Of a DNA stretch of 64,000 nucleotides, positions 8,114-61,749 are shown in pieces. The notes beneath the pieces are model-generated. The model had not been told where the DNA came from, ran no database searches, and worked only from the letters and a program-made list of their open reading frames with translations. A program made the position numbers and the translations under genes. Position 1 is the stretch's first letter. Each line of letters starts with the position of its first letter. Source of the DNA: a virus; the IMG/VR virus record IMGVR_UViG_3300044695_004134, positions 1 through 64,000 of that record. One strand, given 5' to 3'.

Positions 8114-9112
8114 TTAAACAATATTGGGGAATTCTGTTATTTGTGTGGTATATGTATAGTTGTTAGGCATTACAACATTAAGTGGATTAGGTTCTATCTC
8201 CACTCTAACCGTATTAATTGGTGTGGCCACAAAAGATGATGGTACCCAAGTTGTGTTTGTTGTATAACCTTTGACACCGGTGCCAGTTACAAAGTGTCCG
8301 TTCAAATCTGTTAATTCTAGTTTACGTGTGGTGCTATACCAAGAACGTACTTTTGCTGTTGCAGTTGCAGTTTCATAAGAGTAACCTTGGTATACAATTT
8401 CATCAAGTTGATAATTACCAAACCCACCAGCAGACATTGTGGCCGTTACTGTATTGTATTTTAATTTGTTATCATCAAGTATGTTTGTGATTGCTGTTCT
8501 GACTATTTTAGGTTCTCTAATTGCACCGTACAGGTAACCTTTTACAGTGAACGTTAGCGTCCAGATAACATTTCGAACTTTCGAATTATAATCACCCTCA
8601 TAATCAACTTCATTCGTAACACCTTTTAGTATAATAGGTAACTGTTTAATGATACCCATTTCAGGAACTAAATTAACACTTACAGTGTAATCGGGTGTAA
8701 AGTATGGAAGAATCTTTTCCATAAGTTGCGCGCCATCTTCGATGTTTCGGACATATGCAAAGAGTGAGAATTCAAAATCAAATGGAACTGGATTATAAAC
8801 CGCCAGTGTAGATCCAGATTGACCAGAGTGTGCTGTTGTCTTCATGTTGGTGTTTAACTTACGAGAAGGATCATAAGTCATATTTGTCATTTCAAACGAC
8901 ATAATAGGTAACGTGATCTGTACTTTTTTGTCCAACTCTGGATCGCCGTCTAAACGTGAAACGTATTTCTCTTTTCCACCATACACAATTGGAACAAGAA
9001 AATTCTCCTGCTCTACTCCGTTATCATCATACCTTGATAATTTAATTTCATTGAAAAGATTACCAAAAGCGATAACAACTTTTCTAATTGTTCTATGATA
9101 TGCGTAACTCAT
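8114..9112 (-). CDS. gp15: Tail sheath stabiliser/completion protein
   Basis: FGNLFNEI, VPIVYG, LPIMSFE, ILPYFTP motifs; gene order. Confidence 0.9.
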   Translation of the reverse strand: MSYAYHRTIRKVVIAFGNLFNEIKLSRYDDNGVEQENFLVPIVYGGKEKYVSRLDGDPELDKKVQITLPIMSFEMTNMTYDPSRKLNTNMKTTAHSGQSGSTLAVYNPVPFDFEFSLFAYVRNIEDGAQLMEKILPYFTPDYTVSVNLVPEMGIIKQLPIILKGVTNEVDYEGDYNSKVRNVIWTLTFTVKGYLYGAIREPKIVRTAITNILDDNKLKYNTVTATMSAGGFGNYQLDEIVYQGYSYETATATAKVRSWYSTTRKLELTDLNGHFVTGTGVKGYTTNTTWVPSSFVATPINTVRVEIEPNPLNVVMPNNYTYTTQITEFPNIV

Positions 9113-9984
9113 GTTGGTGTACCGAATGGATTAATTTCAGATAAGTCAACAAAGTCTGTTGCCTCTGTCTGTATGAGTTTATTATCATACATTTCACGAG
9201 ATTGTGGGTCTAAGAGAGTGTCTGGTGTTGATGAGATAGTAAATGTTGCATTACTATTTGCACCTCGCATTATTGAGTTATTTGCAAAAGTTCCAAGTAT
9301 GTCGGTGATTTTCAACACACCGTCTGGTCTATTCCAGTATACAACTGTTCCCACATTGTTTGCTGAATTATTTGCACGCACTCTTTCACCAACAATGAAG
9401 TTATTTGAGTTTACATTTGCTGACACGTTCAATGTTATATTATAAGCATCTAGATTAACAATATTATCAATATCTGAAATACCAACATCAATTGTTTCTT
9501 GTGAGTATTTGAATTTCTCAAGTTCGAGTTTATAAAAATATGGATACTTATTACCTAAAACATAGAATGCTTCAGAGTAATTGACGTATTTGATTTCATA
9601 CATCTCACCAGATTGTGATAAGAATGGAATGTAAATCAAATCACCTTCTCTGGGTCTTTGATATGTCTGTGGTACCCAACGTGAAAAAGAACGTTTTGAA
9701 ACAATCACAGACATATTGTTGCGGATTTCTAAACCAAATTTAGAAAAGAACTCACGTTCACCTTCATAACCATCTACGTTTGTAATGTATAATTCTAACG
9801 GATATGATGCATCAAATCTTTTTAATGGATCTTCACCGTAAATTAAATCTCTCGCAGACTCATTAGTATTTGGAATGTAATAGCAATCCACACCATTAAT
9901 TTTAATGGTTTCAATCATCAAGTCTTCCATGAGCCTTTGTTCCGGACTACTTCCGAAATTATTAAAATATAAATTGGTCGCCAT
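9109..9984 (-). CDS. gp14: Neck protein
   Basis: GVDCYYIP, SKFGLEI, RPREGDLIY, C-terminal NPFG. Confidence 0.92.
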   Translation of the reverse strand: MATNLYFNNFGSSPEQRLMEDLMIETIKINGVDCYYIPNTNESARDLIYGEDPLKRFDASYPLELYITNVDGYEGEREFFSKFGLEIRNNMSVIVSKRSFSRWVPQTYQRPREGDLIYIPFLSQSGEMYEIKYVNYSEAFYVLGNKYPYFYKLELEKFKYSQETIDVGISDIDNIVNLDAYNITLNVSANVNSNNFIVGERVRANNSANNVGTVVYWNRPDGVLKITDILGTFANNSIMRGANSNATFTISSTPDTLLDPQSREMYDNKLIQTEATDFVDLSEINPFGTPT

Positions 9985-9985
9985 G

Positions 9986-10762
9986 TTAGTTCAAATAAAA
10001 ATCTACCGGCAATTCGTACTTGCTGGACATTTCTTCTTCCAACGCTTTAATTTCTTCCGTTGCTTCATCAAAAATTACTTGCCCGTTTAAAACAACTCCA
10101 CCTGGAAGTTGAACACCCGCAAACTTTTTAAGATTAGTTCCCCAATTTTTCTTAATGAGTGCTGTGGCATATTCTTTGAGCCAACGGTCATTCCAGACCG
10201 ATGCGTATTGAGCAGAGTCAATCATTGCATACGATTCAGCAATCACCACATCACCTGCTTTCACGGCTGAACCCCATCCCCAATCACAAAACAGTTTGTT
10301 CATGTGTCGTTGATAACGAATTGGCACTTCACCTGTGAACAATAACTCAAGTGAACGGAGATGTTGCATCGTCAACGTATAGTTAACATAAGATGCCGAT
10401 GTAAAATCATACAGTTCATTCAGACGGAGTTGATAACGTAGGTCAAACATGTTGTTTGTGTTAACCGAGTCTGAAATTGGAAAGACACGTGTGACACCAA
10501 CAATCGTTACCGCATTATTACCAGCATCTCTTGTGACACTCGGTGACATATTGATATACTTGTTTGAAATATCAGTTGCGTCTAATTGCTTGATGTAGTA
10601 TACCTTTTGAAGCGCATCAAAATGGTAGTCTTGCCAGTACTGGAACGCATCATCGATTCGGTCTTCTATTTGATCGTCATCAAGGTTGATTTCGATAGTT
10701 GGAAAACCGAGTCTGCGGAGGCAGTATTCTTTAAATGTTTGTCTATTGGTAACCGAAGGCAT
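9986..10762 (-). CDS. gp13: Neck protein (head-tail adaptor)
   Basis: YCLRRLGFPTIEIN, WLKEYATALIK, LPGGVVLNG. Confidence 0.93.
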   Translation of the reverse strand: MPSVTNRQTFKEYCLRRLGFPTIEINLDDDQIEDRIDDAFQYWQDYHFDALQKVYYIKQLDATDISNKYINMSPSVTRDAGNNAVTIVGVTRVFPISDSVNTNNMFDLRYQLRLNELYDFTSASYVNYTLTMQHLRSLELLFTGEVPIRYQRHMNKLFCDWGWGSAVKAGDVVIAESYAMIDSAQYASVWNDRWLKEYATALIKKNWGTNLKKFAGVQLPGGVVLNGQVIFDEATEEIKALEEEMSSKYELPVDFYLN

Positions 10763-11022: not shown

Positions 11023-11310
11023 CTATGTGGATAGTTGTTGTTGTATATTTGTTTTCATATATGAATCTTGTTCTTCTGTGACCCTATTTTGTATCCAAGA
11101 AACAATAGTTTCATCTGTCACTTCGTCAAATGGTATAAAATTACCAGTTAATTCATTTGTTGAAAACGTTGATGTTCCATATACACTACCGGTTTGTCCG
11201 GATTCATTTGTACCCACTAACGCCCAATAAACCTGAACGAGAGCATTTTCAAAACCATTTTCATTGATTTTCTTTTTTGTGTTTATTTTGTAGTTGTATG
11301 TAATAGACAT
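11023..11310 (-). CDS. Hypothetical protein, possibly tail-fibre associated
   Basis: Start reassigned to MSITYNY (11310), which follows a late promoter and GAGAG RBS; FIPFDEVTDETIVSWI motif. Confidence 0.65.
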   Translation of the reverse strand: MSITYNYKINTKKKINENGFENALVQVYWALVGTNESGQTGSVYGTSTFSTNELTGNFIPFDEVTDETIVSWIQNRVTEEQDSYMKTNIQQQLST

Positions 11311-11336
11311 TATTCTCTCATTTCCCGATTCTTGTA

Positions 11337-11344
11337 TATTTATA
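11337..11344 (-). promoter_or_regulatory. T4-type late promoter TATAAATA
   Basis: Exact match overlapping the permease stop codon. Confidence 0.7.
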
Positions 11345-12377
11345 GGAAGGTGAATAGACCAGCCACTAAAAGCATTGATGCTCCCCAAGTTCCTAATGCT
11401 TTATAGTATGTAGCCAATGGAGTTCCAAAGTATCTATTTCCAACGGCAACACATTTGTGTGTTGGACTTACTAGATATCCAACATAATCAACAGCAAAGA
11501 ACCATAAGAAATATTCTACTCCAAAAACCTGTGCGGTTAATACGGCAAATGCTATGTATTTTCCGCTACTACCCATCAGAAAACTGGCAACAAAACCGAT
11601 TGCACTGATCGTTGCCATACCCACAAATGTTGTTGGATCAATAACCGAACCTGTCAACCATGCTTTGAACATATCTTCTTGTGATTTGAAATAGTTGCCT
11701 AGAATGATAGCAACCGCCACGGTAAGAACAACTTGCCAGTTAATATAGTTAAAAATCTTTTTGTAATCCCAGGTTTGAGTAATCAAACAATAATATAATG
11801 CAAGCAATCCAAAGATTTCAAAGACATTATTTTTTCCACCCATATAAATGTATACACCTATTGCGGTAAAGAAAGGTAAAACGTTCCGAAGAACTGCTGA
11901 AATTTTAAAGTCACCGGTGCGGTCGATGTGTATATCTTCTTCTTTAACTGTGAAAAAAATGTAACCTGCAATGAATGCAAGTGATACTGCAAGAAGTGGC
12001 CAAACCATTGACATCCATGCGGCATAAGTTAAACCAAATGCGGCAATTGGTAAAATGACTGTCTTTTCTAATGGGCTCCAAAGATAATAATGGTGGTTGC
12101 CAAGGTAGTCCACGATACCCATTTTTTCTCTACCGTGATTGTGTGAATGATTTGAACACATCGTGTCTAATACACCAGCACTGACTGTAACTCGACCCTC
12201 GATTGGTAAAATTCCACCAATTGCTGACACCAATGCAACCATTATACGATTGCTTTTAACAGTATCTTGAATATATGCAAACGCACTAGCGAAAAGATTT
12301 TGTTCTTTTGCAATACCAGCCGTAATCATAATGAATACCAACATCCACAAATATTCTAAACCTTTCAATAAAAACAT
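11340..12377 (-). CDS. Polytopic membrane protein, DUF401/ion-transporter-superfamily-like permease
   Basis: 345 aa with roughly 10 hydrophobic segments; GILPIEGR and SPTHKC...RYF resemble DUF401-type motifs. Confidence 0.6.
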   Translation of the reverse strand: MFLLKGLEYLWMLVFIMITAGIAKEQNLFASAFAYIQDTVKSNRIMVALVSAIGGILPIEGRVTVSAGVLDTMCSNHSHNHGREKMGIVDYLGNHHYYLWSPLEKTVILPIAAFGLTYAAWMSMVWPLLAVSLAFIAGYIFFTVKEEDIHIDRTGDFKISAVLRNVLPFFTAIGVYIYMGGKNNVFEIFGLLALYYCLITQTWDYKKIFNYINWQVVLTVAVAIILGNYFKSQEDMFKAWLTGSVIDPTTFVGMATISAIGFVASFLMGSSGKYIAFAVLTAQVFGVEYFLWFFAVDYVGYLVSPTHKCVAVGNRYFGTPLATYYKALGTWGASMLLVAGLFTFL

Positions 12378-12378
12378 T

Positions 12379-14007
12379 TTATCTCCTAATAATTACAATA
12401 TACAGTCCATTCCACCATTGGTCTGGATCTTCTATTTCATTTAGAATTAGTTTCTCATAAATTACTTCTAAACCTGCTTCTTTGATACCTTCTTTTGCTC
12501 CAGAAACTACTCCGTCAAAGTTTGCATCATCAAAAATCAATATGGATTCATCTATAAATTTATCTGAAAAATACCTAACTGCGGCACTTGTCATCTCATG
12601 TGAGTGTTCAGCGTCATAGAAAAACATATCAATGTACTCTATTTGTTTTTTATCGACCTGTAAAAAATGGCTGTCGAAAAGTCTAACGGTATTATCATTT
12701 TTAAACTGTCTAACATTATCTATGAATGTTTGCTTTGACGTTTTTATGTTTGTTGTTCCGTTTGATGCCTGTGTTTCACTTTTCCAATAATCTACCGCAT
12801 ATGCTTTGAGTGAATTTCCATCCAAAGTACTACAGAAAGTACCACCATTTAAAACACCAATTTCTAGATATGACGTTGATATTTTACCTAATTGATTCAA
12901 TAATTGTCTGGTTCGGTTTGCAGTTATACCTTCTACTGTTCGGTTCAATTTAACATTTACCGAATCGACTAATATGTTTGCTACAGCTTCAACTTTTTTG
13001 TTGTTTGTATTGCCTTTGGCATGCCAAACCTTATCACAGTAGTTACAATCCCAACAATCAAACTTGCATGTTTTTATCTTATTGCGCCAGATATCAATTG
13101 GCTTATTTTCAAGACCGGTTTCTTTCAAATAGTCGTCAAATGTATCAAATAAAACCTCATCGTTATTTGCAAAACGTTTGATGATGTTCATAGTTTCAAA
13201 CATTCTGTCGGTGCTTTCTCGACCATGCATTTTGATTACGTCTACATACTGTAGCAATTCAATCCAGTCTTCTCTCCAAGGTGGAAAGTTTGCCGTTTTT
13301 AATGCGATTGCTTTGTCGTGTGTGTCCCATTGTGGACAACTGACTCTACTAATTGGGTCATTGAAATATTGTGGTCCAGTTCTTGTGTTGTTGAACTGAA
13401 AGTGTTCATCCATTACTGGACAACCACCTAAACAACCTTCATTAGCAAGAAGTGAAATTTTTATATTGTATTTTTCTTTTACTTTTTTAATTTCACCAAG
13501 TCTTACTTGATCCCTCATCAAATCTCGGTCTAGGTTTACGTAATCAAAACCAGCTTCTGCCAAATTTGCAACATCTCTGGCTTCACTTACATTCCGAAGA
13601 ATAGTATTCTTTACAAACAAGTCTGGAAATTCTGATTTAATTTGACCAGTTTTCATCCAATGTGTATGTGGTAAAGTGCAGGTTTTGATTCCAGACTCAT
13701 ACAATGGTCTAAAATTTTTAATCCAAATGTCCAGATTTTTTTGGTCTGGCCGCACTTCAATGTTGTTAAAAGTTGCAGATACTGGAATACCAGTTTCTCT
13801 TTGGACATGGAGTGCGGTTTGAATGGCAAATAAATTATCTTCTGTTTGTATGAAGATATCACCCATAGCATCCTGAAGAAACGGTGCAATCCTGCAAGTA
13901 AAGTATATGTCGTATATGTAATCTTTATACGTTTTACAAAACTCTAAGAATTCCTTGAACTGTTCCTCATTCAGCTTGGGATTGAGGGGTATACTAAATA
14001 TTTTCAC
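12379..14007 (-). CDS. U32-family (peptidase U32/UbiU-like) Fe-S domain fused to class I SAM methyltransferase
   Basis: LDRD, NEGCLGGCP, SRVSC, KMHGRE (compare U32 KIEGR) and CKFDCWDCNYC; C-terminal YLEIGVLNGGT...FYDAEH...IFDD (Methyltransf_24-like). Likely GTG start at 14007. Confidence 0.7.
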   Translation of the reverse strand: MKIFSIPLNPKLNEEQFKEFLEFCKTYKDYIYDIYFTCRIAPFLQDAMGDIFIQTEDNLFAIQTALHVQRETGIPVSATFNNIEVRPDQKNLDIWIKNFRPLYESGIKTCTLPHTHWMKTGQIKSEFPDLFVKNTILRNVSEARDVANLAEAGFDYVNLDRDLMRDQVRLGEIKKVKEKYNIKISLLANEGCLGGCPVMDEHFQFNNTRTGPQYFNDPISRVSCPQWDTHDKAIALKTANFPPWREDWIELLQYVDVIKMHGRESTDRMFETMNIIKRFANNDEVLFDTFDDYLKETGLENKPIDIWRNKIKTCKFDCWDCNYCDKVWHAKGNTNNKKVEAVANILVDSVNVKLNRTVEGITANRTRQLLNQLGKISTSYLEIGVLNGGTFCSTLDGNSLKAYAVDYWKSETQASNGTTNIKTSKQTFIDNVRQFKNDNTVRLFDSHFLQVDKKQIEYIDMFFYDAEHSHEMTSAAVRYFSDKFIDESILIFDDANFDGVVSGAKEGIKEAGLEVIYEKLILNEIEDPDQWWNGLYIVIIRR

Positions 14008-14707
14008 CTTGATTTTTATTTTCAATTTTAAGTTGTTGTTTAACTACATCATCAATATAATTCATGTCACCAGGTTTATTTTGGGACAATTCTAGTTCTT
14101 CGAGGGCTTTCTTTTCTAACACACCAATACCTCTATTTAAAACCGTATTGTATTTTAATGCGGCCTTAATGGTTTCTTCTTGGTCGTGAAGTGGCATCAT
14201 TGCAATAGAATCTAAATTACCTTGTCCGATTCTACCTTGAGACATTAAATCCATTGCGGCTTGTTTGGCCATTCTGGTGACCCAATAATTGCGTTCTTCA
14301 ACTTCATCGTGCTTCTCATAGCTTTTCAAATCATCAACAGTTGGAACAATATCTTTAATTATTTTAGCAAAATTGTCCAACTCTTCCATACATACTTTGT
14401 ATTTTCTTTCATAAACATTCAGATCATAATTGAATTGGTCTAACTCAATAAGTAATAATTCTTTCTTTAGTTCATCTGTTTCATTTTCAATATCTCGATT
14501 GACTATCTTGATTTGAGTGTTAGTTTTCCATACGTTTCTTTCAATTTGTCTTTTTGCTGCCAATCTGGTTTCTATTTCCAGTAATGCTTGTCTAACTCTC
14601 CTATAATTTGTTACTTGTGAGTTTACAACAAAGTATCTCGACTGAAAATCTGACATTGCCCATGAGCCATAATTTTCAACAATTTCATAAATCTGATTAT
14701 TTTCCAT
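13994..14707 (-). CDS. Hypothetical coiled-coil protein
   Basis: 237 aa charged helical ORF coupled to both neighbours. Confidence 0.75.
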   Translation of the reverse strand: MENNQIYEIVENYGSWAMSDFQSRYFVVNSQVTNYRRVRQALLEIETRLAAKRQIERNVWKTNTQIKIVNRDIENETDELKKELLLIELDQFNYDLNVYERKYKVCMEELDNFAKIIKDIVPTVDDLKSYEKHDEVEERNYWVTRMAKQAAMDLMSQGRIGQGNLDSIAMMPLHDQEETIKAALKYNTVLNRGIGVLEKKALEELELSQNKPGDMNYIDDVVKQQLKIENKNQGENI

Positions 14708-14708
14708 A

Positions 14709-15260
14709 TTAAAATCCTAAAATAAAATGCATCTTACCTTTTCTTGAATCTGTAGTTTCATCCCACATAAACAATTCTCTCAACTGTGTTCTGGTCATTT
14801 CTATACCCAATAATTCTTCCTTTTTATATGCAATTTCTCTAACTGTTGTGCAAGATTCAATTGCATTTAAAATTTCTTGTTCACCATCTCTGCTATCTCT
14901 TGCGTCAAATATTTCTTGAACATTCAACCTGAACACACGCTTTAATAAACTAACCGTTGCGGCTTCTGTTTCTGGTGTGTGGTAAACTTTTGTTTTTCTT
15001 TTACCTTGTGCGAGTTGATCTGCATCTGGCTCCAAGCCTTCAACATCGGAATATGCAGACCTATATCCTCTAACTTCACCATAAAATTTCCAGGCAACTG
15101 TACCCTCAATTTCTGGTATTTCTTCGTGTGTTACACCGTCAAACGGATTAGTTTCCAACACTTCATCACTCACACTATATATCTGAAAACCACTCATTGA
15201 TGTTACTTGTGAAATTCCTTGTGGAATATTTCTCTTAAAATTTGCTAAAAAATATCTCAT
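14709..15260 (-). CDS. Hypothetical protein
   Basis: 183 aa ORF with GAGG RBS, inside the cassette. Confidence 0.75.
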   Translation of the reverse strand: MRYFLANFKRNIPQGISQVTSMSGFQIYSVSDEVLETNPFDGVTHEEIPEIEGTVAWKFYGEVRGYRSAYSDVEGLEPDADQLAQGKRKTKVYHTPETEAATVSLLKRVFRLNVQEIFDARDSRDGEQEILNAIESCTTVREIAYKKEELLGIEMTRTQLRELFMWDETTDSRKGKMHFILGF

Positions 15261-15270
15261 GTGTTTGTCC

Positions 15271-16299
15271 TCAAACTGATGCTGATGCCATTGCGGCAGA
15301 ACTTATCCCATCATGCCCTTTTGGTTGTGCTGTTGACCCTAGTACAGTATATGTATCCGTACCGTGGGTCACTTTATATGTGTTGTTGTTTTGTGCGCCA
15401 TTATATTCACCTAAACAATAACCCCAATTTTGTCCTGTTTCATAATTTTCTTCACCAGAATTGTTAAAACTTAAATCAGTTCTAATATTTGAACCAGTTG
15501 TATCATTTATTTTATATGCACTTGCAGTTGTATTACCACCGTTTTTAACATAAGCATAACCTTCTTTTGTTTTCAGTGCTTTACCCCAGCCATCAGTACC
15601 AACTGTTAGTCCAGCAGAACTCCATGTTTCTGTAGCAAATTCTATTTTATGGTTGCGGCTTCCGTTATAAGACTGTTTTACCCAACCGTAATATTGACCA
15701 TACCATGCACAGACGAAATCCCCTGGAGTGCCGGCTGAACCACCTTGACCTGTTGCATACATAACTTCTGTTACCAAATTATGTTTATCTATGTTTGTTG
15801 CAGTTCCTAATATCCATGCTAATGATAAATTCGCATTTATTATTACACCAGCATCACCATAACTGTCGTAAGATTGTTTAGTGTCCCAAGCAGAATCGTG
15901 GGTTCTACCAGATTCTGTAACCATATTGTATGACGAAGTATATGTTCCTGTTCCAGGCCATGATTCTGAGGTTGCATATATGTATTGATAATAATCATTA
16001 TAACTTCCATCAACATATGCGGCATTTCTATCTATCGAATCACCTAAATTTGTTGTCGTATCTGTTGCATGTATAGTTTTATTGGTGTTCTTCCATGGGC
16101 TTGTATCTTTATAACCACCTACCACATATCCTTTGTAATATATTGTTCTGTATTTAAAAGGATTTGCTGAGAATGGATTTGATGTTTGTGTGTCACCGTA
16201 AACAGTCCATGAACTATTAGAATCATAAATGTAAAGTACACCATTATCTGACACATAAGTGTTACCAACTGATGGTGACGAAGGGAAGTCGAAAGCCAT
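15271..16299 (-). CDS. Kelch-like beta-propeller protein (paralog B)
   Basis: Start MAFDFPSSP at 16299 (TAATG overlap); repeated GY..GG/...T(D/E)T blades; clear paralog of 16299..17348. Confidence 0.6.
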   Translation of the reverse strand: MAFDFPSSPSVGNTYVSDNGVLYIYDSNSSWTVYGDTQTSNPFSANPFKYRTIYYKGYVVGGYKDTSPWKNTNKTIHATDTTTNLGDSIDRNAAYVDGSYNDYYQYIYATSESWPGTGTYTSSYNMVTESGRTHDSAWDTKQSYDSYGDAGVIINANLSLAWILGTATNIDKHNLVTEVMYATGQGGSAGTPGDFVCAWYGQYYGWVKQSYNGSRNHKIEFATETWSSAGLTVGTDGWGKALKTKEGYAYVKNGGNTTASAYKINDTTGSNIRTDLSFNNSGEENYETGQNWGYCLGEYNGAQNNNTYKVTHGTDTYTVLGSTAQPKGHDGISSAAMASASV

Positions 16300-17348
16300 T
16301 ATACACCACCCAATAAGAATGCTGAGGCTGTGCCGCAACATCCTGAACTCATTCCATCATGTCCTTTTGGTTGTGTGTCTGAGCCCATAGCTGTTGAAGT
16401 ATCAGTTAGATAATTTATTTTTTGTGTATTGTTTGTTTGATTACCATTGTAAGAACCCAAACTATAACCGTGATTTTGGCCAATCTGGTGATTTTCTTCA
16501 CCGCATGTATCAGGTCTGGCTACTGTTGTTATAGCAGTTGTACCTGGAACAAAATCATTCCATTTATTATAAGTTGCAGAACCACCGTAAGAACCTGTTG
16601 CACAATAACCATAACCCATTTTAGTTGATAACCCTTTAGGTTGTCCGTCTGATCCCGAACTCCATGTACCAGAAATCCATGTTTCTGTAGCAAATTCTAT
16701 ATATGCGGCGGTGCTATTAACTGCAATCCATCCTCTAAACTGGCCATGCAGTGTAGCTATACCACCAGCTGTACCACCAGCTGATGCAGGATTGGCTCCT
16801 ACAGAACCTGCATTGTACATTGTTTCTGTTACATAGTTATGTTTATCTGTTGCTGTAGAACCTCCGGCAGTTATATAACCAACGGTTAACGATCCGTTCA
16901 TCAATACGTCAGTATCACCTCTAGTTGTTTTTGTGTTCCATATAGAATTGTGAGTTCTTCCTGAATCTGTTGACATATTAACAGATGATGTGTGTGTTGA
17001 AGAGCCATTTACTGCACCGGACATTCCATAAACATAATGATAATAGTCACTAAAGCCACCGCCAATATAAGAAGCATTATAGTCAACCATGTCTCCAAGA
17101 TTAGTAGTCACATCAGTTGAGTGCTGAGTTTTGTTTACGTTTCTCCAAGGTGAACCACTTTTATATCCAGCTGAAACATATCCTCTTGTGTATATTGTTC
17201 TATATCTAAAAGAATCCGTAAAAGGGTTTGATGGTTGTGTGTCACCCTTTGTGGTCCAAGATGCACTTGTGTCGTACAGATAGATGTAACCTGTTGGTGC
17301 AACGAATTGCGTTCCTGTTGTTGGTGAAGTTGGAAAAATAAAAGCCAT
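16299..17348 (-). CDS. Kelch-like beta-propeller protein (paralog A)
   Basis: Shares F(K/R)YRTIY, GYKxxSPW, GRTH, IEFATETW, GEEN and QPKGHDG with paralog B. Confidence 0.6.
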   Translation of the reverse strand: MAFIFPTSPTTGTQFVAPTGYIYLYDTSASWTTKGDTQPSNPFTDSFRYRTIYTRGYVSAGYKSGSPWRNVNKTQHSTDVTTNLGDMVDYNASYIGGGFSDYYHYVYGMSGAVNGSSTHTSSVNMSTDSGRTHNSIWNTKTTRGDTDVLMNGSLTVGYITAGGSTATDKHNYVTETMYNAGSVGANPASAGGTAGGIATLHGQFRGWIAVNSTAAYIEFATETWISGTWSSGSDGQPKGLSTKMGYGYCATGSYGGSATYNKWNDFVPGTTAITTVARPDTCGEENHQIGQNHGYSLGSYNGNQTNNTQKINYLTDTSTAMGSDTQPKGHDGMSSGCCGTASAFLLGGV

Positions 17349-17379
17349 TTTAGTACTTTGTGTTACTTACCATATAGAA

Positions 17380-17387
17380 TATTTATT
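17380..17387 (-). promoter_or_regulatory. Late promoter variant AATAAATA
   Basis: 7/8 match in the intergenic gap heading the six-gene cassette. Confidence 0.5.
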
Positions 17388-17397
17388 GCTGTATATC

Positions 17398-20300
17398 TTA
17401 TACATCTATCAATTTAGAAATAAGAGATTCGAGCATAGCTACTCTAGCACGAAGGTCTACAACCTCTTTGGCAAGTTCTACGGACGAAGCCAGAGCGGCA
17501 TTACCATATGAAACAGATAAAGTTTTCATATCATCATTTGCAGTCAGTATAGCTTCTGGTAATAATTCCTGTAATGACTGTGCTGATACACCAACTTGTG
17601 TTAAATCTTTTTCATCAATACGTTCATATATACCGACTTTAACTTGCGCCAATCGAGTGACATAGTTTACTGGCATATTACGCCAATTTTTCTTCAGTCT
17701 TTCGTCCGAAAATGACGTTACGCTTCCGGCCGCAGTCATGTTTCCGGACATGTCAAGCACCCAGCGGTTAGCTGACGCCGACCAACCACCAATACGAAGT
17801 ACGTTATCAGAATCCAGACCCATGTTGACAGCAAAAGCGCCGCTTCTATGGAATGACATAAACGCAGAATTACCGCCTGTTGCATATGCTTGGAGTGGTG
17901 GAGAACTTAAACTTCCTGATGTTCCACCTAAGTTAGACTGGAAATATGTTTCGGTAGTAACTGTGCTACCAAAACCTGGTCCAATTGGTCCAATTGGTCC
18001 GATTGGTCCAATGGGTCCTTGACCACCACCTGGTCCAATGGGTCCAATTGGTCCGATTGGTCCAATGGGTCCTTGACCACCACCTGGTCCAATGGGTCCA
18101 ATGGGTCCTTGTGGTCCTGTTGGTCCTCTGGGTCCGATAGGTCCAATAGGTCCGATAGGTCCAATAGGTCCGATAGGTCCAATGGGTCCTTGTGGTCCAA
18201 TTGGTCCGATAGGTCCAATAGGTCCGATAGGTCCAATGGGTCCTTGTGGTCCAATTGGTCCGATAGGTCCGATTGGGCCAGCAGGACCACCAGGTCCTTG
18301 ATTACCAATTGGTCCGATAGGTCCGATTGGGCCAGCAGGACCACCAGGTCCTTGATTACCAATTGGTCCGATTGGGCCAGCAGGACCACCAGGTCCTTGA
18401 TTACCAATTGGTCCGATAGGTCCGATTGGGCCAGCAGGACCACCAGGTCCTTGATTACCAATTGGTCCGATAGGTCCAATAGGTCCTTGTGGTCCAATCA
18501 GCCCGCTGTTTGGACCTGTCCATGCTCCAGATGAATTGATAACTTGACCGTATCCCTCAATTCCTAATGAACCTACACTTGTCGTGCCTGTTACTGTAAG
18601 TGTGCTGTTTGCGGTAACTGGTCCAGTGATTACGCCACCTGCTTTTGAAAAGTAAAGCGTAAAATCTGGAATTGGGAAAGCATCAACCCATTGTGAACTG
18701 GTTCCATCATAGTATCGTATTTTCAGTTTACCTGTGTCTGATTCCCACCAGAAATCACCAGGAGTAAAAATTGAAGGTGCTGTATCACTAATAGTAATAG
18801 TGGGAATATTTCTCCACGCTTGCCATGTGCCGGAAGATTTTCCTCTTACAGCAATACCACCTGTACGGAAGTCACCATAAATTTCATGGTACCAATCAGT
18901 GCTGTAACCTGCAACATATAATCCACCATCTGATTGTGAACCAACTGAACCACCTAGGCCATAGGATGATGGGATATTAGAATTTACATATCCAACAGCA
19001 TTAAGTGAAGTGGGGCTACTTGCGTCTAATGGGTTGCTAGAAATTGCAGAAGTGAAGTTTGGTGCAACTGCTCCAATTGGTCCAATAGGTCCAATTGGTC
19101 CAATTGGTCCTTGTGGTCCAGTATTACCGATAGGTCCAATTGGCCCGATAGGTCCTTGTGGCCCGATAGGTCCGATTGGTCCAATTGGTCCGATTGGACC
19201 CTGTGGTCCGATAGGTCCAATAGGTCCAATTGGTCCGATTGGACCCTGTGGTCCGATAGGTCCAATAGGTCCAATTGGTCCGATTGGACCCTGTGGTCCT
19301 GTTGGTCCAATAGGTCCGATTGGCCCGATAGGTCCTTGTGGTCCAATGGGTCCAATAGGACCGATGGGTCCGATTGGACCCTGTGGTCCTGTATTACCAA
19401 TGGGTCCGATAGGTCCTTGATTTCCGATTGGACCAATAGGTCCGATGGGTCCTTGTGGTCCAGTTGGTCCAGTATTACCGATTGGACCAATAGGTCCTTG
19501 ATTTCCGATTGGACCAATAGGTCCTTGTGGTCCGATTGGACCGATGGGTCCTTGTGGTCCGATTGGACCGATGGGTCCAGTATTACCGATTGGTCCGATA
19601 GGTCCTTGATTTCCGATTGGTCCCTGTGGTCCAGTAGGACCCAATGGTCCAATTGGGCCGATAGGTCCTTGATTACCAATCGGTCCTTGATTACCAATGG
19701 GTCCAATTGGTCCCTGTGGTCCTGTATTACCGATTGGTCCGATAGGTCCTTGTGGTCCGATTGGTCCAATTGGGCCGATAGGTCCTTGATTACCAATCGG
19801 TCCGATAGGTCCTTGTGGACCAGTTACACCTTGATTACCAATTGGACCAATTGGGCCGATAGGTCCGATAGGTCCTTGTGGTCCAGAAACTCCTTGATTA
19901 CCAATCGGTCCGATGGGTCCTTGTGGTCCAGTTACGCCTTGATTACCAATCGGTCCGATAGGTCCTTGCGGACCGGTTGGACCCTGATTACCAATTGGTC
20001 CAATGGGCCCGATAGGTCCAATGGGTCCCTGTGGTCCAGTGTTGCCGATAGGACCCTGTGGTCCAGTATTACCAATAGGTCCCTGTGGACCAATTGGACC
20101 CTGTGGTCCAGTTGGTCCAGTATCACCGATTGGTCCGATAGGTCCTTGTGGACCAATCACGCCTTGATTACCAATGGGTCCAATTGGTCCCTGTGGTCCA
20201 GTTACGCCTTGATTACCAATAGGTCCAATTGGTCCCTGTGGTCCTGTTGGACCTGGTGAACCTACTGCACCTGATATATTAACATCCCAATTGCTGTATG

Positions 20301-20964
20301 TACCTGAACCAGAAAAACCAACTGTTAAGAATTCTATAAAACCATTTGACGATTCGTAGTGTGTTACATCAGCATCTTGGTATAATGAAACAGTGTTAGC
20401 AATACGAAAAATTTGACCTATCGAATATGCAAGCCCAGTTCCAATAATAATACTTCGTGTATTTCCGTCACCAACTATCGTGTATGAAGTGCTACTTGTC
20501 GTGCGATATCTATCACCAACTGGACCTTGTGGGCCAGTTGCTCCAGTAGGACCTTGTGGTCCTGTTGGACCTGGAGTTAATGAAATGTTATTGGCGTAAT
20601 CAAATGATGCTTGTGCAGTAATATTTGCACTATTGGCACGACTGAAAGCCGCATTAATAATTGGCGATAGTGTTTCACCAATAATAATTTTATCGTTTGA
20701 TGAATAACCAGTAAGTGTAATGCCATTGGTACTTTCGAACGATAGAATGTCTGTTGCTGATGTGGGTACTAAGAGAGTACCATTCACATTCACCGACTCA
20801 AAAACATCCTGTAGGCGGATCGTTTTGATTTGATCCGACTCATTCTTATAATAGATAATACCATCATTGTAATTGATGGCCAATTCACCATAATTTAAAC
20901 CATTCGCATCAGGAACAATACCTGTTACGCCTGATTTTTTAATTTGAATTACTGTATTTGTCAT
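17398..20964 (-). CDS. Collagen-like tail fibre with C-terminal S74 intramolecular chaperone
   Basis: Long Gly-X-Y runs (GPI/GPQ/GNQ) and an SDERLKK autocleavage motif near the C-terminus. Confidence 0.88.
17977..18495. repeat. 9-bp-period collagen repeat array (distal block, fibre 1)
   Basis: ggtcc(a/g)at(t/a/g) units with 45-54 bp higher-order duplications encoding [12 protein letters not shown]. Confidence 0.9.
19066..20262. repeat. 9-bp-period collagen repeat array (main block, fibre 1)
   Basis: About 1.2 kb of uninterrupted Gly-X-Y codons. Confidence 0.92.
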
Positions 20965-23898: not shown

Positions 23899-26800
23899 TT
23901 AGGGTATTTTTTTCTTCAGTTCTTTGACTTCATTCGACAGTTCTTTAACCGCTTCAATGAGAACACCAACTATGTTACCATATGCAACTGACAAATATTC
24001 GGATTCTTTTTCTTTTTGTACAACTTCCGGTAAAACTTTTTGTACTTCTTGTGCGATAACACCAACACCAGGCCTACCTTCACGTTCGAATCTCACTCCT
24101 CTCATATTTTCAATACACAGGAGAGCATTTTCAATAGTTTGAATATTAGTTTTTAATCTTTCATCAGAATAAGCAGTAACGTTGCCTGGAGCAGTTAAGT
24201 CTCCTGTGCTAGGATTGAATGTGAATGCTGTTGCTGTTGTTCTAACACTTGGTGTTTGATTGCTGCCGGCACTTGCAACAAACACTGGGAAAAAAGAAGC
24301 GTCTGTTGTTATTGCAGTGGCATTAATTTCAGTGGAAGGTCCGATTGGCCCAATAGGTCCGATTGGACCGATGGGTCCTTGTGGACCTAGAGGTCCGATA
24401 GGTCCGATTGGTCCAATGGGTCCTTGTGGTCCAATAGGTCCGATAGGTCCTTGTGGTCCAATGGGTCCTTGTGGTCCAATAGGTCCGATGGGTCCTTGTG
24501 GTCCGATTGGTCCGATTGGTCCAATGGGTCCAATGGGTCCTTGTGGTCCGATTGGTCCGATTGGTCCAATGGGTCCAATGGGTCCTTGTGGTCCAATAGG
24601 TCCGATAGGTCCTTGTGGTCCAATAGGTCCAATTGGACCAATGGGTCCAATTGGTCCTTGTGGTCCTGTAGGTCCTGTTGGACCTCTAGGTCCGATTGGT
24701 CCAATGGGTCCAATGGGTCCTTGTGGCCCGATAGGTCCAATTGGTCCAATGGGTCCTTGTGGTCCGATTGGTCCGATAGGTCCTTGCGGCCCGATTGGTC
24801 CGATAGGTCCTTGTGGTCCAATGGGTCCGATTGGTCCAATGGGTCCTTGTGGTCCAATAGGTCCGATAGGTCCTTGTGGCCCGATTGGTCCGATGGGTCC
24901 TTGTGGCCCGATTGGTCCAATAGGCCCGATAGGACCAATGGGTCCTTGTGGTCCAATAGGACCAATGGGTCCAATGGGTCCGATTGGTCCCTGAGGTCCA
25001 ATAGGTCCGATTGGTCCTTGTGGTCCAATGTTACCTGCTCTAGTGAATTGCACCATCACCAAATCGTTGTTAGTAAATGTTCCCACACCAGAAACGTATG
25101 TAAGAACAACAGTTCTAAACCCTGTTGAGTCTGTTACTGTACCTGAAGCAAATACAGCATACTTAGATGTTGGTGAACCGAACACAGAGAGTCTGATGTA
25201 ACCTTTAGTTGCACCGTTTGCTTGACCCCATTCTGTAAGTATGGTGGAAATATCATTGCCATATGTGTCAAGGTTATCAAAGTAACCAGCGGTTGCAGAA
25301 GCAATCGTTCCATTATTCAGTCTGAAGAAACCTGCACCAGGATCTGAAGCTGTGGTTGTTGTTGAATACTGTTGTGCAACACCAAGAACTGCACCGGAGT
25401 TAACAACGTTCGATGAAATTCTGGAATTTACATCCAACCTCATCTGATTAATTCGGTTTGCTGTAGCGGCTTGTGTCGTACTTGTGCTTGTATCAGTGTC
25501 GTTCAACTGAACAATACCAGCGTTGTTTACGTTAGCTGTATATTTTTCAGTAACAATTGTATTGTATGTGTTCGGGTTAGCACCAGAAATCTCACGTATT
25601 TTCCACATGCTATCGGAATTATCAAATCTGATATATGCATTTGGTGAGAAAGCTGGACCAATCGTACTTGTTCCAAGAGTTGTTGTAAGTGTTCCTGCTG
25701 AAACAGCAACTGTAACGACAAAAGTAAATGAAGTCGAGTTTACATTTGTTACAGTCCAAGTACCATTCAATTTAGTTTGTTGTGTACCTGTTGCACCTGC
25801 AACTGTTATGGATTGTCCAGTGGCAACTGTGACCGCACCGGCATGGTTACATGTTACAGTTGTAGTTCCATTACCAACAAAGTTTGTTGGTGTTATACCA
25901 TAAGTTGTCGATAACTGTCGTTGTACACCGAATTGTGCGGTTTGTGATGCTGTGATTGGTGTTGCACCGTACAAGTCAAACTCAGATGAGTTGTACACTG
26001 TACCACCATCAATAACAAAGTTACCCTTAACCGTTAAATCTTTGCCAGCAATAATAGAATTGTTTGAAAAAATGTTATCTGCGTTGATAGATGGAGTGTA
26101 AATGTCTGTGTTAGCAGTCAAGAAATTTACATTGATATTATCTACAACAGAAATATATTGTACGTTTGCGCCTATAATATTGGCTGTTCCTCCAACATTT
26201 ACTGTGTTGGCATTCATATGGCTAGTATTGATTACAGAATTTGCTGTAATATAACCAACATTCAACATTGTAGCAATTCTACCGTAACTTGCAACGTTTA
26301 AATTACCACCGTTCAAGTTTGTATTAGCAGTGATTGTACCACTAATCATTGATGTGTTAGCAACCAAACCCGCGGTTACAATCGTACTATTAGCAACCAA
26401 ACCAGCGGTTACAATCGTACTATTAGCAACCAAACCAGCGGTTACAATCGTACTATTAGCAACCAAACCAGCGGTTACAATCGTACTATTAGCAACCAAA
26501 CCAGCGGTTATCACTCCAGTATTAGCAACAATATTACCAGCTTGTAATCTGGTTGTGAATGCTTCTGTTGTAGTAATATGACTATTGGAATTCAAGGATC
26601 CGGCATATGAAATACCAGACGCATAAGCCTGTGTTGTAGTAATATGACTATTGGAATTCAAGGACCCAGAGATTAATCCAGTGTTAGCAACAATATCATC
26701 GGCTTGTAATCTGGTTGTAAATGTTTCTGTTGTTGTTACATATGAATTAGAATTCATTGACATTACATATGCATTACTAGAAGTATATAATGTGGCGGTG

Positions 26801-28512
26801 TTAACGAAAACGTTAGCCGATAAACTGTTAACATTAGCAGTCAATGAGTATACATTAGATGTGGTAACGTATGAATTAGAATTCAATGACATTACATACG
26901 CATTACTAGATGTATATAATGTGGCGGTGTTAACGAAACTGTTGGCACTCAAGAAATTTGTATTGACACTAGTGTTAGCTACTAGACCAGCAGTTACAAC
27001 CCCTGTATTAGCAACAAGTGCATTTGTTATCACTCCAGTATTTGCTACAATATTACCTGCTTGTAATCTGGTTGTAAATGATTCCGTTGTAGTAACATAA
27101 CTATTTGAATTCAATGACATTGTATACGCATTACTAGATGTATATAATGTGGCGGTGTTAACAAATGAATTAGCACTCAAGAAATTTGTATTGACACTAG
27201 TGTTAGCCACCAAACCGGCGGTTACAATGGTGTTATTAGCAACCAACCCGGCGGTTACAACCCCTGTATTAGCAACAAGTGCATTTGTTATCACTCCAGT
27301 GTTAGCAACAATATTGCCTGCTTGTAATCTGGTTGTAAATGATTCCGTTGTAGTAACATAACTATTTGAATTCAATGACATTACATATGCATTGCTGGAC
27401 GTATATAATGTGGCAGTATTAACAAATGAATTAGCACTCAAGAAGTTTGTATTGACACTAGTGTTAGCCACCAAACCAGCAGTTATCATTCCAGTGTTAG
27501 CAACAATATTACCTGCTTGTAATCTGGATGTAAATGCTTCGGTTGTGGTAACATAACTATTGGAATTCAATGACATTACATATGCATTACTAGAAGTATA
27601 TAATGTGGCGGTGTTAACGAAACTGTTGGCACTTAAAAAGTCTGTATTGACTCTAGTGTTAGCCACCAAACCAGCGGTTACAATCGTACTATTAGCTACT
27701 AGACCAGCAGTTACAATCGTACTATTAGCTACTAGACCAGCGGTTACAACCCCTGTATTAGCTACCAAACCAGCGGTTACAACCCCTGTATTAGCAACAA
27801 TATTATCTGCTTGTAATCTGGATGTAAATGCTTCGGTTGTGGTAACATAACTATTGGAATTCAATGACATTACATACGCATTACTAGATGTATATAATGT
27901 GGCAGTATTAACGTATACATTTGCACTTAGAACATTAACGTTAATTGCGCCCGCAATATTAGCCCAACCAGCATTTACTTCAATGTTTGCTGTTAAGTTC
28001 TGTGTGTATCCAGTTGAAATATACAATAGGGGTGTTTGAATCCATGTATTCGATACGAGATTAGCAATTCTTGTATTACCACCGACAACTAAATTATTTG
28101 CAAGTGTTACATTGCCATTAAACAATGAGTTGTTTGCAACATACAGGCTTGGACCGCCAGCATTGTTCAGCCCTGCACCTACGATTTGAAGATTGGCTAA
28201 GTTTGCAACACCATCAACACGAAGCCCTAGCCCGGTATTGTTAGCAACATAAATGAAACCTGTCGTACTGACAGTCAATCCATTTTGTATTGTCGCCGAA
28301 GAGCCTACACCAGAAACTTGAAATGAACCTTGTATAAGTGCATTATTGGAAACTTGTAAGCCAGTTCCAGGAGAATCAATAAGGAAAGTGCCGGTGTTTT
28401 TGGTGTAGTTGTTCGCACCAATATCATTGGTTTCCGACAACACGTTGTTTGTTGTGGTTACCCAATCACCAAATGTGTTGGCATAATTTAAAGGAATGAT
28501 TTGATTAGCCAT
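23899..28512 (-). CDS. Long tail fibre: Ala-Asn-rich repeats, collagen segment and S74 chaperone
   Basis: N-terminal NTFGDW anchor, nested repeats, (GPI/GPQ)n block, SDERLKTNI motif. Confidence 0.88.
24338..25030. repeat. 9-bp-period collagen repeat array (fibre 2)
   Basis: About 0.7 kb of almost pure GPI/GPQ triplets. Confidence 0.92.
26355..27930. repeat. Nested coding repeats: 33-bp units within ~60-80 aa super-repeats
   Basis: tagcaaccaaaccagcggttacaatcgtactat tandem copies ([11 protein letters not shown]); [13 protein letters not shown] recurs six times. Confidence 0.9.
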
Positions 28513-28732
28513 TGTTGCCCTTGCCTATTAATTGCTTCAGTAGTTCTTTGATATCGGTTACATCGCTTTTCATTGATGTAATTTCCAACTTTATATTATT
28601 TATTTCATCTTTTTGAGACTTAATTATTTTTGATCTATTAAAATACTCTTCTTTGGCACTTCTATCATTATTGATAAGTGCCATAGAATTTGTATCTCTT
28701 AGATAATTAGTGTCGTTAACTTGCACTAACAT
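28505..28732 (-). CDS. Small hypothetical coiled-coil protein
   Basis: 75 aa ORF between the VrlC-like gene and the fibre, overlapping the latter. Confidence 0.7.
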
Positions 28733-60954: not shown

Positions 60955-61419
60955 ATGAAAATTAACACATCTTTTTATGTTTACGCATATCTCCGAGACA
61001 ACGGAACTCCATATTACATAGGTAAAGGTTCTGGAAAAAGGATATACAGTAAACACAACATAAAATTACCAAAAGACGTATCTAAAATAATATTCGTAGA
61101 GAAGAATTTGACAGAAATTGGAGCTTTTGCCATCGAACGTAGTTTAATACGTTGGTATGGAAGAAAGGATAACAATACTGGCATATTAAGAAATCTAACG
61201 AACGGCGGAGAAGGTGGTTCAGGTGCAATACGAACTTCGGAACACCGAAAACTTATTAGTAATGCTATGCTTGGAAATTCCAGAGCAAAGGGTCATAAAA
61301 GACCAGGAACGAAACCTGAACTAAACAAACATAAAATTTATATGAGTTGTTTACATTGCAATAAACAATTTAACATTGGTAATTTTACCAAACATATAAA
61401 TTCACTAAAAGCCGGATGA
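60955..61419 (+). CDS. Free-standing GIY-YIG homing endonuclease
   Basis: FYVYAYLR...YYIGKG, WYGRKD...LRNLTNGGEG, C-terminal CLHC...H; paralog of 43003..43665. Start uncertain (60901, 60937 or 60955). Confidence 0.8.
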   Translation: MKINTSFYVYAYLRDNGTPYYIGKGSGKRIYSKHNIKLPKDVSKIIFVEKNLTEIGAFAIERSLIRWYGRKDNNTGILRNLTNGGEGGSGAIRTSEHRKLISNAMLGNSRAKGHKRPGTKPELNKHKIYMSCLHCNKQFNIGNFTKHINSLKAG

Positions 61420-61441
61420 TTGGATAATAAGGACATCCGGC
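61407..61441 (-). terminator. 3' hairpin/terminator of the tmRNA transcript
   Basis: GCCGGATG...CATCCGGC stem followed by TTTT on the minus strand. Confidence 0.6.
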
Positions 61442-61714
61442 AAAACCTCAGCTTAGCCTCAAGCGGCTAGGCGATATTCACTGTCGTTTGCAGTTACTTT
61501 GATTTAGTTTTTACACCTACTCTGGTGAGTTGTCCACTTCTGTACTTGTTGCCCTGTCGAATAGCTGAGTACACCCCCATCAAAAGCACTTCCCGATTTA
61601 CATTCCCCCGAATACATCATTTCTGGTTCGGCTAATACGCAAATGCTTTTGGTGGAGGTGGGGGGATTTGCACCCCCGTCCAGAACACTTTTCTAGTTGC
61701 TTCATACAACCATA
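61411..61714 (-). ncRNA. ssrA: Circularly permuted (two-piece) tmRNA
   Basis: Acceptor piece ending GGGGG-TGCAAAT-CCCCC-CACCTCC-ACCA (3' end 61650) precedes the coding piece starting GGGGGTG (61578). The 7-bp acceptor stem has G3:U. Tag ANDSEYRLAA* at 61491-61459. Outer ends approximate. Confidence 0.92.
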
Positions 61715-61720
61715 GCCCCT

Positions 61721-61749
61721 ATTATAGAGGTTTTTTATTTAGGTGTCAA
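61721..61749 (-). promoter_or_regulatory. Consensus sigma70 promoter for tmRNA
   Basis: TTGACA (61749-61744), 17 nt spacer, TATAAT (61726-61721). Confidence 0.9.

Follow-up and report, generated by a model that had tools for sequence, protein, structure and literature searches.

A conserved, late-expressed phage cassette joins Kelch-type propellers to a U32-like barrel and an O-methyltransferase

Here we describe a block of six genes from the T4-like cyanomyovirus recorded in IMG/VR as IMGVR_UViG_3300044695_004134, located at 11340-17348 of the 64,000-nucleotide (nt) stretch that we analyzed (positions 1 to 64,000 of that record; hereafter the window), and show that it belongs to a conserved, horizontally mobile and late-expressed phage cassette. 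The cassette combines tandem Kelch-type beta-propellers (Kelch A and Kelch B), two helper proteins (p183 and p237), a protein, p548, in which a cysteine-rich barrel of U32-like fold is fused to an S-adenosylmethionine (SAM) O-methyltransferase, and, in many genomes, a membrane protein of the DUF401 family. Judging by analogy with known enzymes, these products most likely perform a hydroxylate-then-methylate modification. Few viruses are as abundant in lakes and oceans as T4-like cyanophages, and the cassette occurs in 123 of the cyanophage genomes on deposit as well as in more than 400 viral contigs.

Results

The genes of the cassette are inherited together. Searches seeded with p548 returned 80 viral contigs, in which the usual order was Kelch (one to three copies), p237, a small gene, p548 and DUF401. 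When loci were instead seeded with the Kelch gene, p237 and p548 followed downstream in the same order at every locus with enough flanking sequence (53/53), and DUF401 was adjacent in 42/53; likewise, loci seeded with a stand-alone barrel gene from another clade held Kelch, p237, barrel and methyltransferase in 40/40 cases and DUF401 in 38/40. Among GenBank phages, 123 cyanophage records contain the Kelch gene and 123 contain p548, with identical organism breakdowns, and the p548 enzyme is additionally found in three Ralstonia records. Rearranged blocks (L064, L081) still keep p237 with the Kelch genes. DUF401 behaves more loosely: seeding with it recovered p548 within 8 kb at 15 of 27 loci, it occurs in only 12 GenBank phage records (9 of the 123 cyanophage ones), and it lies 58 kb from p548 in S-CAM4 and about 185 kb away in one 245-kb viral contig. 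Hence, these counts define a core of Kelch, p237, small helper, barrel and methyltransferase, to which DUF401 is a common accessory. An earlier note on this DNA, made from the letters alone, had proposed a self-contained multi-gene unit, and the neighbourhood analysis agrees with it, as homologues lacking the conserved linkage were not seen for the four core genes in the 53 and 40 loci or in the 123 records.

The composition of the block varies between clades. In the clade of locus L244, the barrel and the methyltransferase are encoded by separate adjacent genes; the existence of both fused and split forms therefore ties the two activities together. The same clade has an extra radical SAM gene immediately ahead of the barrel gene (L244:6000-7001), as well as a 293-amino-acid (aa) gene between methyltransferase and DUF401 (L244:8759-9640), whose product matches the outer-membrane-barrel family Phenol_MetA_deg with an E value of 0.0022, below the Pfam cut-off. 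Elsewhere, several cyanophage clades have tandem 2-oxoglutarate (2OG)-Fe(II) oxygenase genes within or beside the cassette: two are inserted between p548 and DUF401 (L034:11619-13535), and several separate p237 from p548 in S-ShM2 (L001 13090-15766).

A similar run of genes, ORF143-ORF138, is found in the Ralstonia jumbo phage RP12, which is unrelated to the cyanophages. There, a collagen-like gene (ORF143) lies directly upstream of a member of the Kelch family (ORF142; profile E value 1e-7, structural template modelling (TM) score 0.72), which is followed by ORF141, located between the Kelch-like and p237-like genes, by a p237 homologue (ORF140), by a barrel protein with no methyltransferase domain (ORF139, 41% identity) and by a DUF401 protein (ORF138, 37% identity). 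The phages P-HM2, P-SSM4, Syn19, S-ShM2 and phiRP12/RP31 are cultured carriers, which makes the function of the cassette experimentally accessible.

Members of the cassette have been catalogued before as non-core hypothetical clusters T4-GC351-354 of marine cyanomyoviruses (Sullivan et al., 2010), which supports the statement of the earlier note that none of them is a T4 core gene. These clusters comprise the orthologues of Kelch ('sericin 1 precursor-like'), the small helper, p237 and p548, are contiguous in P-HM2 by the tail fibre and gp13, and are carried by about five or six of the 16 cyanophage genomes catalogued in that study. The window virus, by comparison, is a freshwater relative whose p548 is 42-44% identical to theirs and which has two Kelch copies and an adjacent DUF401 gene. 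A three-gene group of P-SSM4, orf32 ('prion-like'), orf35 ('archaeal protease') and orf36, had been listed earlier still (Sullivan et al., 2005); from their positions, orf32 and orf35 would be the Kelch and p548 orthologues. In the literature searched, we found no paper that assigns a function to the cassette and no characterized module that matches it, in agreement with the earlier note, so that beyond its gene-cluster numbering the cassette is undescribed.

The timing of expression is known for P-HM2, in which PHM2_098 to PHM2_101, the orthologues of Kelch, the small helper, p237 and p548, all fall into the 'Late' clusters of the infection transcriptome (Thompson et al., 2016; PMC5082946, supplementary file 3); late expression, which had been proposed from the letters of the window, is thus supported by these orthologues. 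Moreover, one metatranscriptome library yielded contigs that are mostly 93-99% identical to the window (99.5% for one of them) over p548, p237 and both Kelch genes and that bridge the Kelch A/B, p183/p237 and p237/p548 junctions, although DNA carry-over is possible and assembled contigs are no proof that the genes share one transcript. Where this run left parts of the cassette uncovered, the gaps were not read as absence.

With regard to promoters, a late-promoter-like motif, AATAAATA, occupies 17380-17387 (minus strand; ATAAATA at 17380-17386) in the 49-nt gap before Kelch A, and TATAAATA, at 11337-11344 (minus strand), runs across the DUF401 stop codon and precedes the small gene that comes next (ATG near 11309). 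Both elements of the earlier picture, in which one late promoter opened the block and a further motif closed it, are hence present, but TATAAATA occurs in the window six times against 5.5 expected, which is chance level with no enrichment, and the opening motif is not conserved. In the 100 nt that precede the first Kelch gene, ATAAATA was found at only 3 of 52 related loci and was absent from the other 49; the relatives L004 and L075 carry it about 30 nt before the ATG. This rules out a conserved dedicated late promoter. At most of the 52 loci the cassette starts right behind a fibre gene, and scans for sigma-70-like promoters and for terminators gave results at chance level. Since 49 of the 52 loci are without the motif and most of them lie directly behind a fibre gene, the cassette normally belongs to a longer late operon, and the separate promoter that it has in the window is a local feature. 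The small gene that follows the cassette (11023-11388, minus strand) has its probable ATG, near 11309, directly behind TATAAATA, and no family could be assigned to it.

All six open reading frames (ORFs) of the block are co-directional and lie on the minus strand of the window. They are, in gene order, Kelch A (16299-17348, 349 aa as called), Kelch B (called as 15271-16341, with a probable true start at ATG 16299 that gives 342 aa), p183 (14709-15260, 183 aa, the small helper), p237 (13994-14707, 237 aa, a helical, coiled-coil helper), p548 (12379-14025, 548 aa from a TTG start at 14025, with an alternative GTG at 14007) and the DUF401 protein (11340-12377, 345 aa). The Kelch A stop and the probable Kelch B start overlap by 1 nt at 16299, and the junctions that follow are a 10-nt gap, a 1-nt gap, an overlap of 14 or 32 nt, depending on the p548 start, and a 1-nt gap; the tight packing of six genes, with gaps of 10 nt or less or overlaps, had been recognized correctly by the earlier note. 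Gene content and DNA matches identify the source as a T4-like cyanomyovirus (record length 166 kb, 99% complete). Near-identical DNA turned up in the lake-water metagenomes of over ten studies; the virus is therefore a freshwater phage.

Kelch A consists of a short N-terminal segment (P-x-S-P...Y-x-Y-D...W) and a six-bladed Kelch-type beta-propeller (residues 50-344). It shares 51% identity with its paralogue Kelch B, whose start, MAFDFPSSP, aligns with the N-terminus of the family and which has the same N-terminal motif. The AlphaFold2 (AF2) model of Kelch A, built from 32 relatives with a mean predicted local distance difference test score (pLDDT) of 82.8, matched the Kelch domain of KLHL17 with a VIA Z score of 30.3 (272 residues aligned at a root-mean-square deviation (rmsd) of 2.5); further Kelch-domain matches included KLHL12 (Z 29.5) and Keap1 (Z 29.2), with 267-272 residues aligned and an rmsd of 2.4-2.5. 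The model has the six blades of four strands each that characterize Kelch propellers. Among its structural neighbours in viruses are the 'sericin 1-like' proteins of cyanophages and, from Ralstonia phage RP12, a protein of 292 aa. A Pfam scan of both paralogues returned no family at E values up to 0.1, Kelch repeat models included, and Kelch A matches PHROG 1417. Conserved residues concentrate in the last two blades (K243, G283-E-E-N286, G290-Q291, Y300, Q304 and G332-x-S-S). Within the GEEN motif E284 is invariant and G283, E285 and N286 nearly so, and the C-terminal GxSSG is conserved in the family as well. The description of two paralogous Kelch-like proteins with conserved GEEN and GHDG motifs, given by the earlier note, hence holds for the paralogy, the fold and the GEEN motif but not for 'GHDG', the His of which is not conserved. 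The N-terminal motif is not shared by other ORFs of the window, so that the idea of a common fibre-docking module built on it was not borne out. A predicted complex of Kelch A with p237 scored 0.00 against a mark of 0.32, a result that carries no weight either way.

The N-terminal domain of p548 (13006-14025, minus strand) is modelled by AF2 as an eight-stranded barrel. Its best solved match among 48,161 PDB representatives was the U32 peptidase Mk0906 (5d88; residues 5-275, Z 15.9, rmsd 3.6, 226/247 residues aligned), the next TIM barrel being MTHFR (Z 13.6), and Foldseek matched it to the same Mk0906 structure with an E value of 7.7e-7; the domain has the (beta/alpha)8 barrel fold of the U32 type. 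By the Pfam sequence model, it is not a member of the U32 family. The Peptidase_U32 model (PF01136) did not match p548 at E values up to 0.1, nor did a six-frame scan of the 166-kb genome find it at E values up to 10, whereas 10 of 14 genomes used as controls did yield the family, 8 of them above the curated cut-off, and canonical U32 genes of other genomes score 170-306 bits. Comparison of an alignment of 27 barrel sequences with six canonical U32 proteins by hhalign gave a probability of 65.7% (E value 5.8e-5) over 135 columns; this match pairs strands 2-6, places the LDR of the barrel on the LAREL motif of U32 and ends before the cysteine motifs. Across sequences of 24-50% identity, the barrel keeps N87, E196, C198, C202, H208, C230, K265, R269, C320, C324, C327 and C330 invariant. 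The seven cysteines of this set, which lie on loops of low pLDDT in the model, form the pattern E-x-C-x3-C...C with an extra C-x3-C-x2-C-x2-C cluster, a spacing unlike that of canonical U32 proteins, in which four conserved cysteines bind a 4Fe-4S cluster and hydroxylation depends on prephenate. The family comprises 619 clusters at 50% identity, and no Pfam domain was found in any of ten that were sampled. The domain is a very divergent, cysteine-rich barrel of U32-like fold that probably binds iron-sulfur. As for the cysteine-rich U32-like enzyme fused to a methyltransferase that the earlier note had described, the fusion and the methyltransferase stand, and the likeness to U32 stands as one of fold alone.

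The C-terminal domain of p548 (12379-12969, minus strand) is a class I SAM O-methyltransferase of the cation-dependent type. Residues 387-500 match Pfam Methyltransf_24 (E value 2.1e-8, 35.4 bits against a cut-off of 26.3), and residues ~353-548 resemble 5x7f (Rv0187-type, Z 16.5), MeT1 (6g7d, 16.3), 4oa5 (15.9) and TrmR (5zw3, 15.6), which places the Rossmann-type fold closest to the subgroup of catechol O-methyltransferase (COMT), caffeoyl-CoA O-methyltransferase (CCoAOMT) and TrmR. Invariant in 21 sequences are the SAM-binding glycine motif Y386-L-E-x-G390...G394 (LEIGxxxG), D412, D471 and D499-D500-A-N502; in a profile alignment by hidden Markov models, D471 and D499/D500 fall on the IDAAK and TDN motifs of TrmR, positions that we take to be metal ligands. 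TrmR was also the sole PDB match by sequence profile (E value 0.007).

The DUF401 protein, a multi-pass membrane protein of the ion-transporter superfamily type, exceeds the Pfam cut-off over residues 13-328 (35.4 bits against 24). It reaches 49.9 bits with NCBIfam TIGR00529, far under the cut-off of 378, and is therefore a distant member rather than an equivalog. A search by sequence found no PDB relative, and its RP12 orthologue additionally matches CitMHS. The multi-pass transporter-like protein anticipated by the earlier note is thus supported as to family, but not as a fixed member of the cassette, given its presence in few cyanophage records and its distance from the enzyme in S-CAM4.

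The two helper proteins belong to PHROGs of unassigned function. p183 (PHROG 1604, E value 1.5e-12) evolves fast and is poorly conserved, being detected by tblastn only in closer relatives (22/53 loci), and it is weakly similar to the gene in the equivalent position of other clades; the order of p183 and p237 varies between clades. p237 (PHROG 1409) is always located beside the Kelch genes, and its alignment contains an invariant polar set (Q40, E44, R48, E109, E138, W142, R145, Q149, G158, G163 and N164). No Pfam or NCBIfam family matched it; a PDB profile search found no relative, the best match, ribosomal protein L10 (E value 0.13), being due to chance, and its only matches in the ESM Atlas were clusters of hypothetical viral proteins, whose structural similarity stayed under TM 0.5.

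The barrel also has cellular relatives. When one genome of each prokaryotic species was scanned, about 25 barrel-family loci came to light, mostly in metagenome-assembled genomes (MAGs) of Dehalococcoidia and other anaerobes, some of them binned phage contigs. A complete Dehalogenimonas chromosome encodes three paralogues (L087, L094 and L097) of about 410 aa that are without methyltransferase; two of the three follow reductive dehalogenase genes and one (L097) precedes a DAHP synthase, and at two of the three loci the neighbours encode B12-radical-SAM proteins that have a PqqD peptide-recognition domain fused to them. Elsewhere, the neighbours include a reductive dehalogenase (L091), a small-molecule-type O-methyltransferase (L101), a URO-D-like methyltransferase (L108) and an NHL propeller. 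No DUF401, p237 or phage-type Kelch gene was found near the cellular barrel loci. These contexts point to anaerobic redox chemistry on peptides or aromatic compounds, and a role of the bacterial family in organohalide-respiration islands or in peptide maturation is possible. Three loci, L088, L105 and L107, labelled as Pelagibacterales, Nitrososphaerales and Chloroflexota MAGs, combine the barrel gene with neck genes of T4-like type, which are homologous to the window genes at 8114-10762, and are probably phage contigs binned into MAGs.

Discussion

The earlier note had offered two candidate roles for the block, a receptor-binding tip with the enzymes that mature or modify it and a late pathway that imports and modifies a substrate; both stay hypothetical. 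We propose that the barrel of p548 would oxidize a phenol-type group on a substrate, probably by hydroxylation, as do UbiU/UbiV and TrhP, by analogy with which the step is drawn, and that the fused catechol-type methyltransferase would then O-methylate the new hydroxyl. Cation-dependent O-methyltransferases typically act on a hydroxyl that adjoins a second oxygen; given this need for a neighbouring oxygen, a route from phenol through catechol to methoxyphenol would make chemical sense, whether the phenol belongs to a tyrosine side chain or to a small aromatic molecule. The Kelch proteins, which may be fibre-associated adhesins, would be the most probable substrates or the platform of the reaction, with p237 and p183 possibly acting as adaptors or chaperones. 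We favour the Kelch proteins in this role because they are strictly co-inherited, occur as tandem diverging copies and are accompanied by tailoring enzymes that come and go as in maturation clusters, but we assign it to them tentatively and it may well prove wrong. The B12-radical-SAM-PqqD neighbours of the cellular homologues and the radical SAM and 2OG-Fe(II) oxygenase insertions of the phage clades provide a context of protein modification. In its most specific form, this idea would have an oxygen-independent iron-sulfur enzyme of U32 fold hydroxylate a tyrosine or another residue of Kelch, p237 serve as substrate adaptor and the methyltransferase cap the product, giving adhesin residues of the 3,4-dihydroxyphenylalanine (DOPA) or methoxy-tyrosine type; we consider so detailed a scheme rather unlikely, but if true, it would constitute a new class of post-translational modification machinery that is common to abundant cyanophages and plant-pathogen jumbo phages.

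Several observations weigh against modification of the propellers. As the barrel stands outside the U32 sequence family and its cysteine spacing differs, hydroxylase chemistry is an analogy only; moreover, an oxygen-sensitive iron-sulfur enzyme is unexpected in an oxygen-producing host. The conserved GxSSG of Kelch lies within the confidently modelled region, beside the closing strand, and not on a free tail. In the virion proteome of phiRP31, none of the five cassette products was detected whereas both flanking gene products were (PMC5468394, Table S3), although excised gel bands were analyzed and sensitivity was low; a virion location of the Kelch protein is therefore unsupported in this phage. 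For cyanophages that carry the cassette, we found no virion proteome in the literature, and S-SM1, Syn9 and S-PM2, for which proteomes exist, are not among the carriers that we identified. Finally, the membrane transporter and the weak outer-membrane-barrel match fit a small-molecule pathway better than protein maturation.

Such a pathway, in which DUF401, with an outer-membrane channel in some clades, would import or export a phenolic or quinone-like compound for the U32-like domain to hydroxylate and the methyltransferase to methylate, leaving Kelch and p237 as accessory or binding proteins, is a doubtful but serious candidate. UbiU/UbiV hydroxylate the ring of a ubiquinone precursor, and UbiG methylates. 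The transporter is adjacent at most Kelch-seeded and stand-alone-barrel loci and again in RP12; the gene with the weak Phenol_MetA_deg match lies between methyltransferase and DUF401 in the L244 clade; the best structural matches of the methyltransferase are O-methyltransferases of the catechol, caffeoyl-CoA and sugar type; several cellular homologues adjoin reductive dehalogenase, O-methyltransferase, DAHP synthase or URO-D-like genes; and the failure to detect cassette products in phiRP31 virions is in keeping with an intracellular pathway of this kind. However, DUF401 is dispensable and can be encoded far from p548, the strictly linked partners of the enzyme being Kelch and p237 rather than the transporter, and one to three tandem diverging Kelch paralogues would be unusual for a metabolic enzyme. 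Additionally, the outer-membrane match is under the Pfam cut-off, and Dehalococcoidia genomes are rich in rdhA, so that some of the adjacency to dehalogenases may be due to chance. To our knowledge, U32 hydroxylases and COMT-type methyltransferases form only one characterized pair, TrhP1/TrhP2 with TrmR in Bacillus subtilis, and p548 might correspondingly act on nucleic acid, either as a phage version of the TrhP and TrmR route (tRNA U34 to ho5U to mo5U) or as an RlhA-type hydroxylase of rRNA, thereby retuning late decoding for an AT-rich genome. In addition to this precedent, the profile match and fold similarity to TrmR speak for it. Nevertheless, the barrel is not a canonical U32 protein, TrmR is one of many equally good methyltransferase matches, the Pfam scan found no RNA-binding domain, and RP12 has the enzyme without the methyltransferase domain; the obligatory linkage to Kelch and p237, the location in the fibre region and the late timing would also be left unexplained. 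Action on RNA is quite unlikely.

The neighbouring collagen-like tail-fibre proteins are another conceivable target, in the manner of the dioxygenase-collagen pairs predicted in bacteria and phages. A 1188-aa collagen-like gene lies directly upstream of the block in the window, as ORF143 does in RP12, and the phiRP31 orthologue of the latter, ORF140, is a collagen-like virion protein (PMC5468394); hydroxylation of co-encoded collagen-like and tail-collar proteins has been predicted (Iyer et al., 2010; PMC2938197). Against this, a collagen-like ORF stands immediately upstream of Kelch at only 4 of 57 loci, which rules out the linkage as a general rule, and within 6 kb at 19/57, and Gly-X-Y repeats offer no obvious target to a catechol-type O-methyltransferase; this target appears even less probable than RNA. 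Could the genes be neighbours merely because the fibre region is a hot spot of insertion, with no joint function? The region is indeed variable, with insertions between cassette members in S-ShM2, L034 and L244, and the order of p183 and p237 differs by clade. Yet co-occurrence without exception in both sets of seeded loci, the identical GenBank distribution of Kelch and p548, the preservation of the block in an unrelated Ralstonia jumbo phage and the overlap of start and stop codons between members leave a chance neighbourhood strongly disfavoured and, in our view, hardly credible.

Compared with known systems, the barrel of p548 resembles the O2-independent U32 hydroxylation factors (UbiU/UbiV, TrhP and RlhA), as well as Mk0906, in its (beta/alpha)8 fold and in having conserved cysteines after late barrel strands. 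It differs from them in the absence of a PF01136 match and in its cysteine pattern; no C-terminal U32 beta-barrel was identified in it, and its hydroxylase activity is putative. The TrhP1/TrhP2-TrmR (B. subtilis yrrMNO) and UbiU/UbiV-UbiG pairs, the two U32-based pairs known to hydroxylate and then O-methylate, follow the same two-step logic of a U32-type domain and a class I O-methyltransferase, while the phage form is a single polypeptide or a pair of adjacent genes and is strictly linked to Kelch and p237. The canonical U32 hydroxylase of the TrhP-TrmR pathway has no counterpart here, as the barrel fails the U32 model and the Pfam scan revealed no RNA-binding domain. Clusters for ribosomally synthesized and post-translationally modified peptides (RiPPs) and other protein-maturation clusters likewise unite tandem candidate substrates, an Fe-S-type enzyme, a methyltransferase, a transporter and variable radical SAM or 2OG oxygenases; the candidate substrates of the cassette, however, are folded propellers of 350 aa rather than short peptides, and no recognition element or leader peptide was identified.

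The present analysis adds linkage counts in both directions, a clade in which the enzyme genes are split and a radical SAM gene is inserted, the finding that DUF401 is accessory, the Dehalogenimonas contexts and the link to published data on late expression and virions. The barrel family, with about 600 clusters, lacks a Pfam model and occurs in anaerobes beside dehalogenases and peptide-maturase-like radical SAM enzymes. If the propellers are indeed modified, the cassette would represent new chemistry for building or tuning the host-recognition parts of phages; if the substrate is a small molecule, it would represent a new kind of phage-encoded metabolic pathway.

Other features of the window

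ARAGORN reported, with an asterisk flag, a gene resembling transfer-messenger RNA at 61368-61742 (minus strand) with the tag peptide ANDSEYRLAA, which may be a false positive or a real phage element. Two very long collagen-like genes, at 17398-20964 and 23899-28524 (both minus strand), have as many as 134 and 78 consecutive Gly-X-Y triplets, respectively, and push the local G+C content to 0.46-0.50. The ORFs antisense to them, at 18965-19420 and 24260-24994 (both plus strand), likewise read as Gly-X-Y, and among metagenome contigs the collagen-like repeat array shows many length variants and internal joints.

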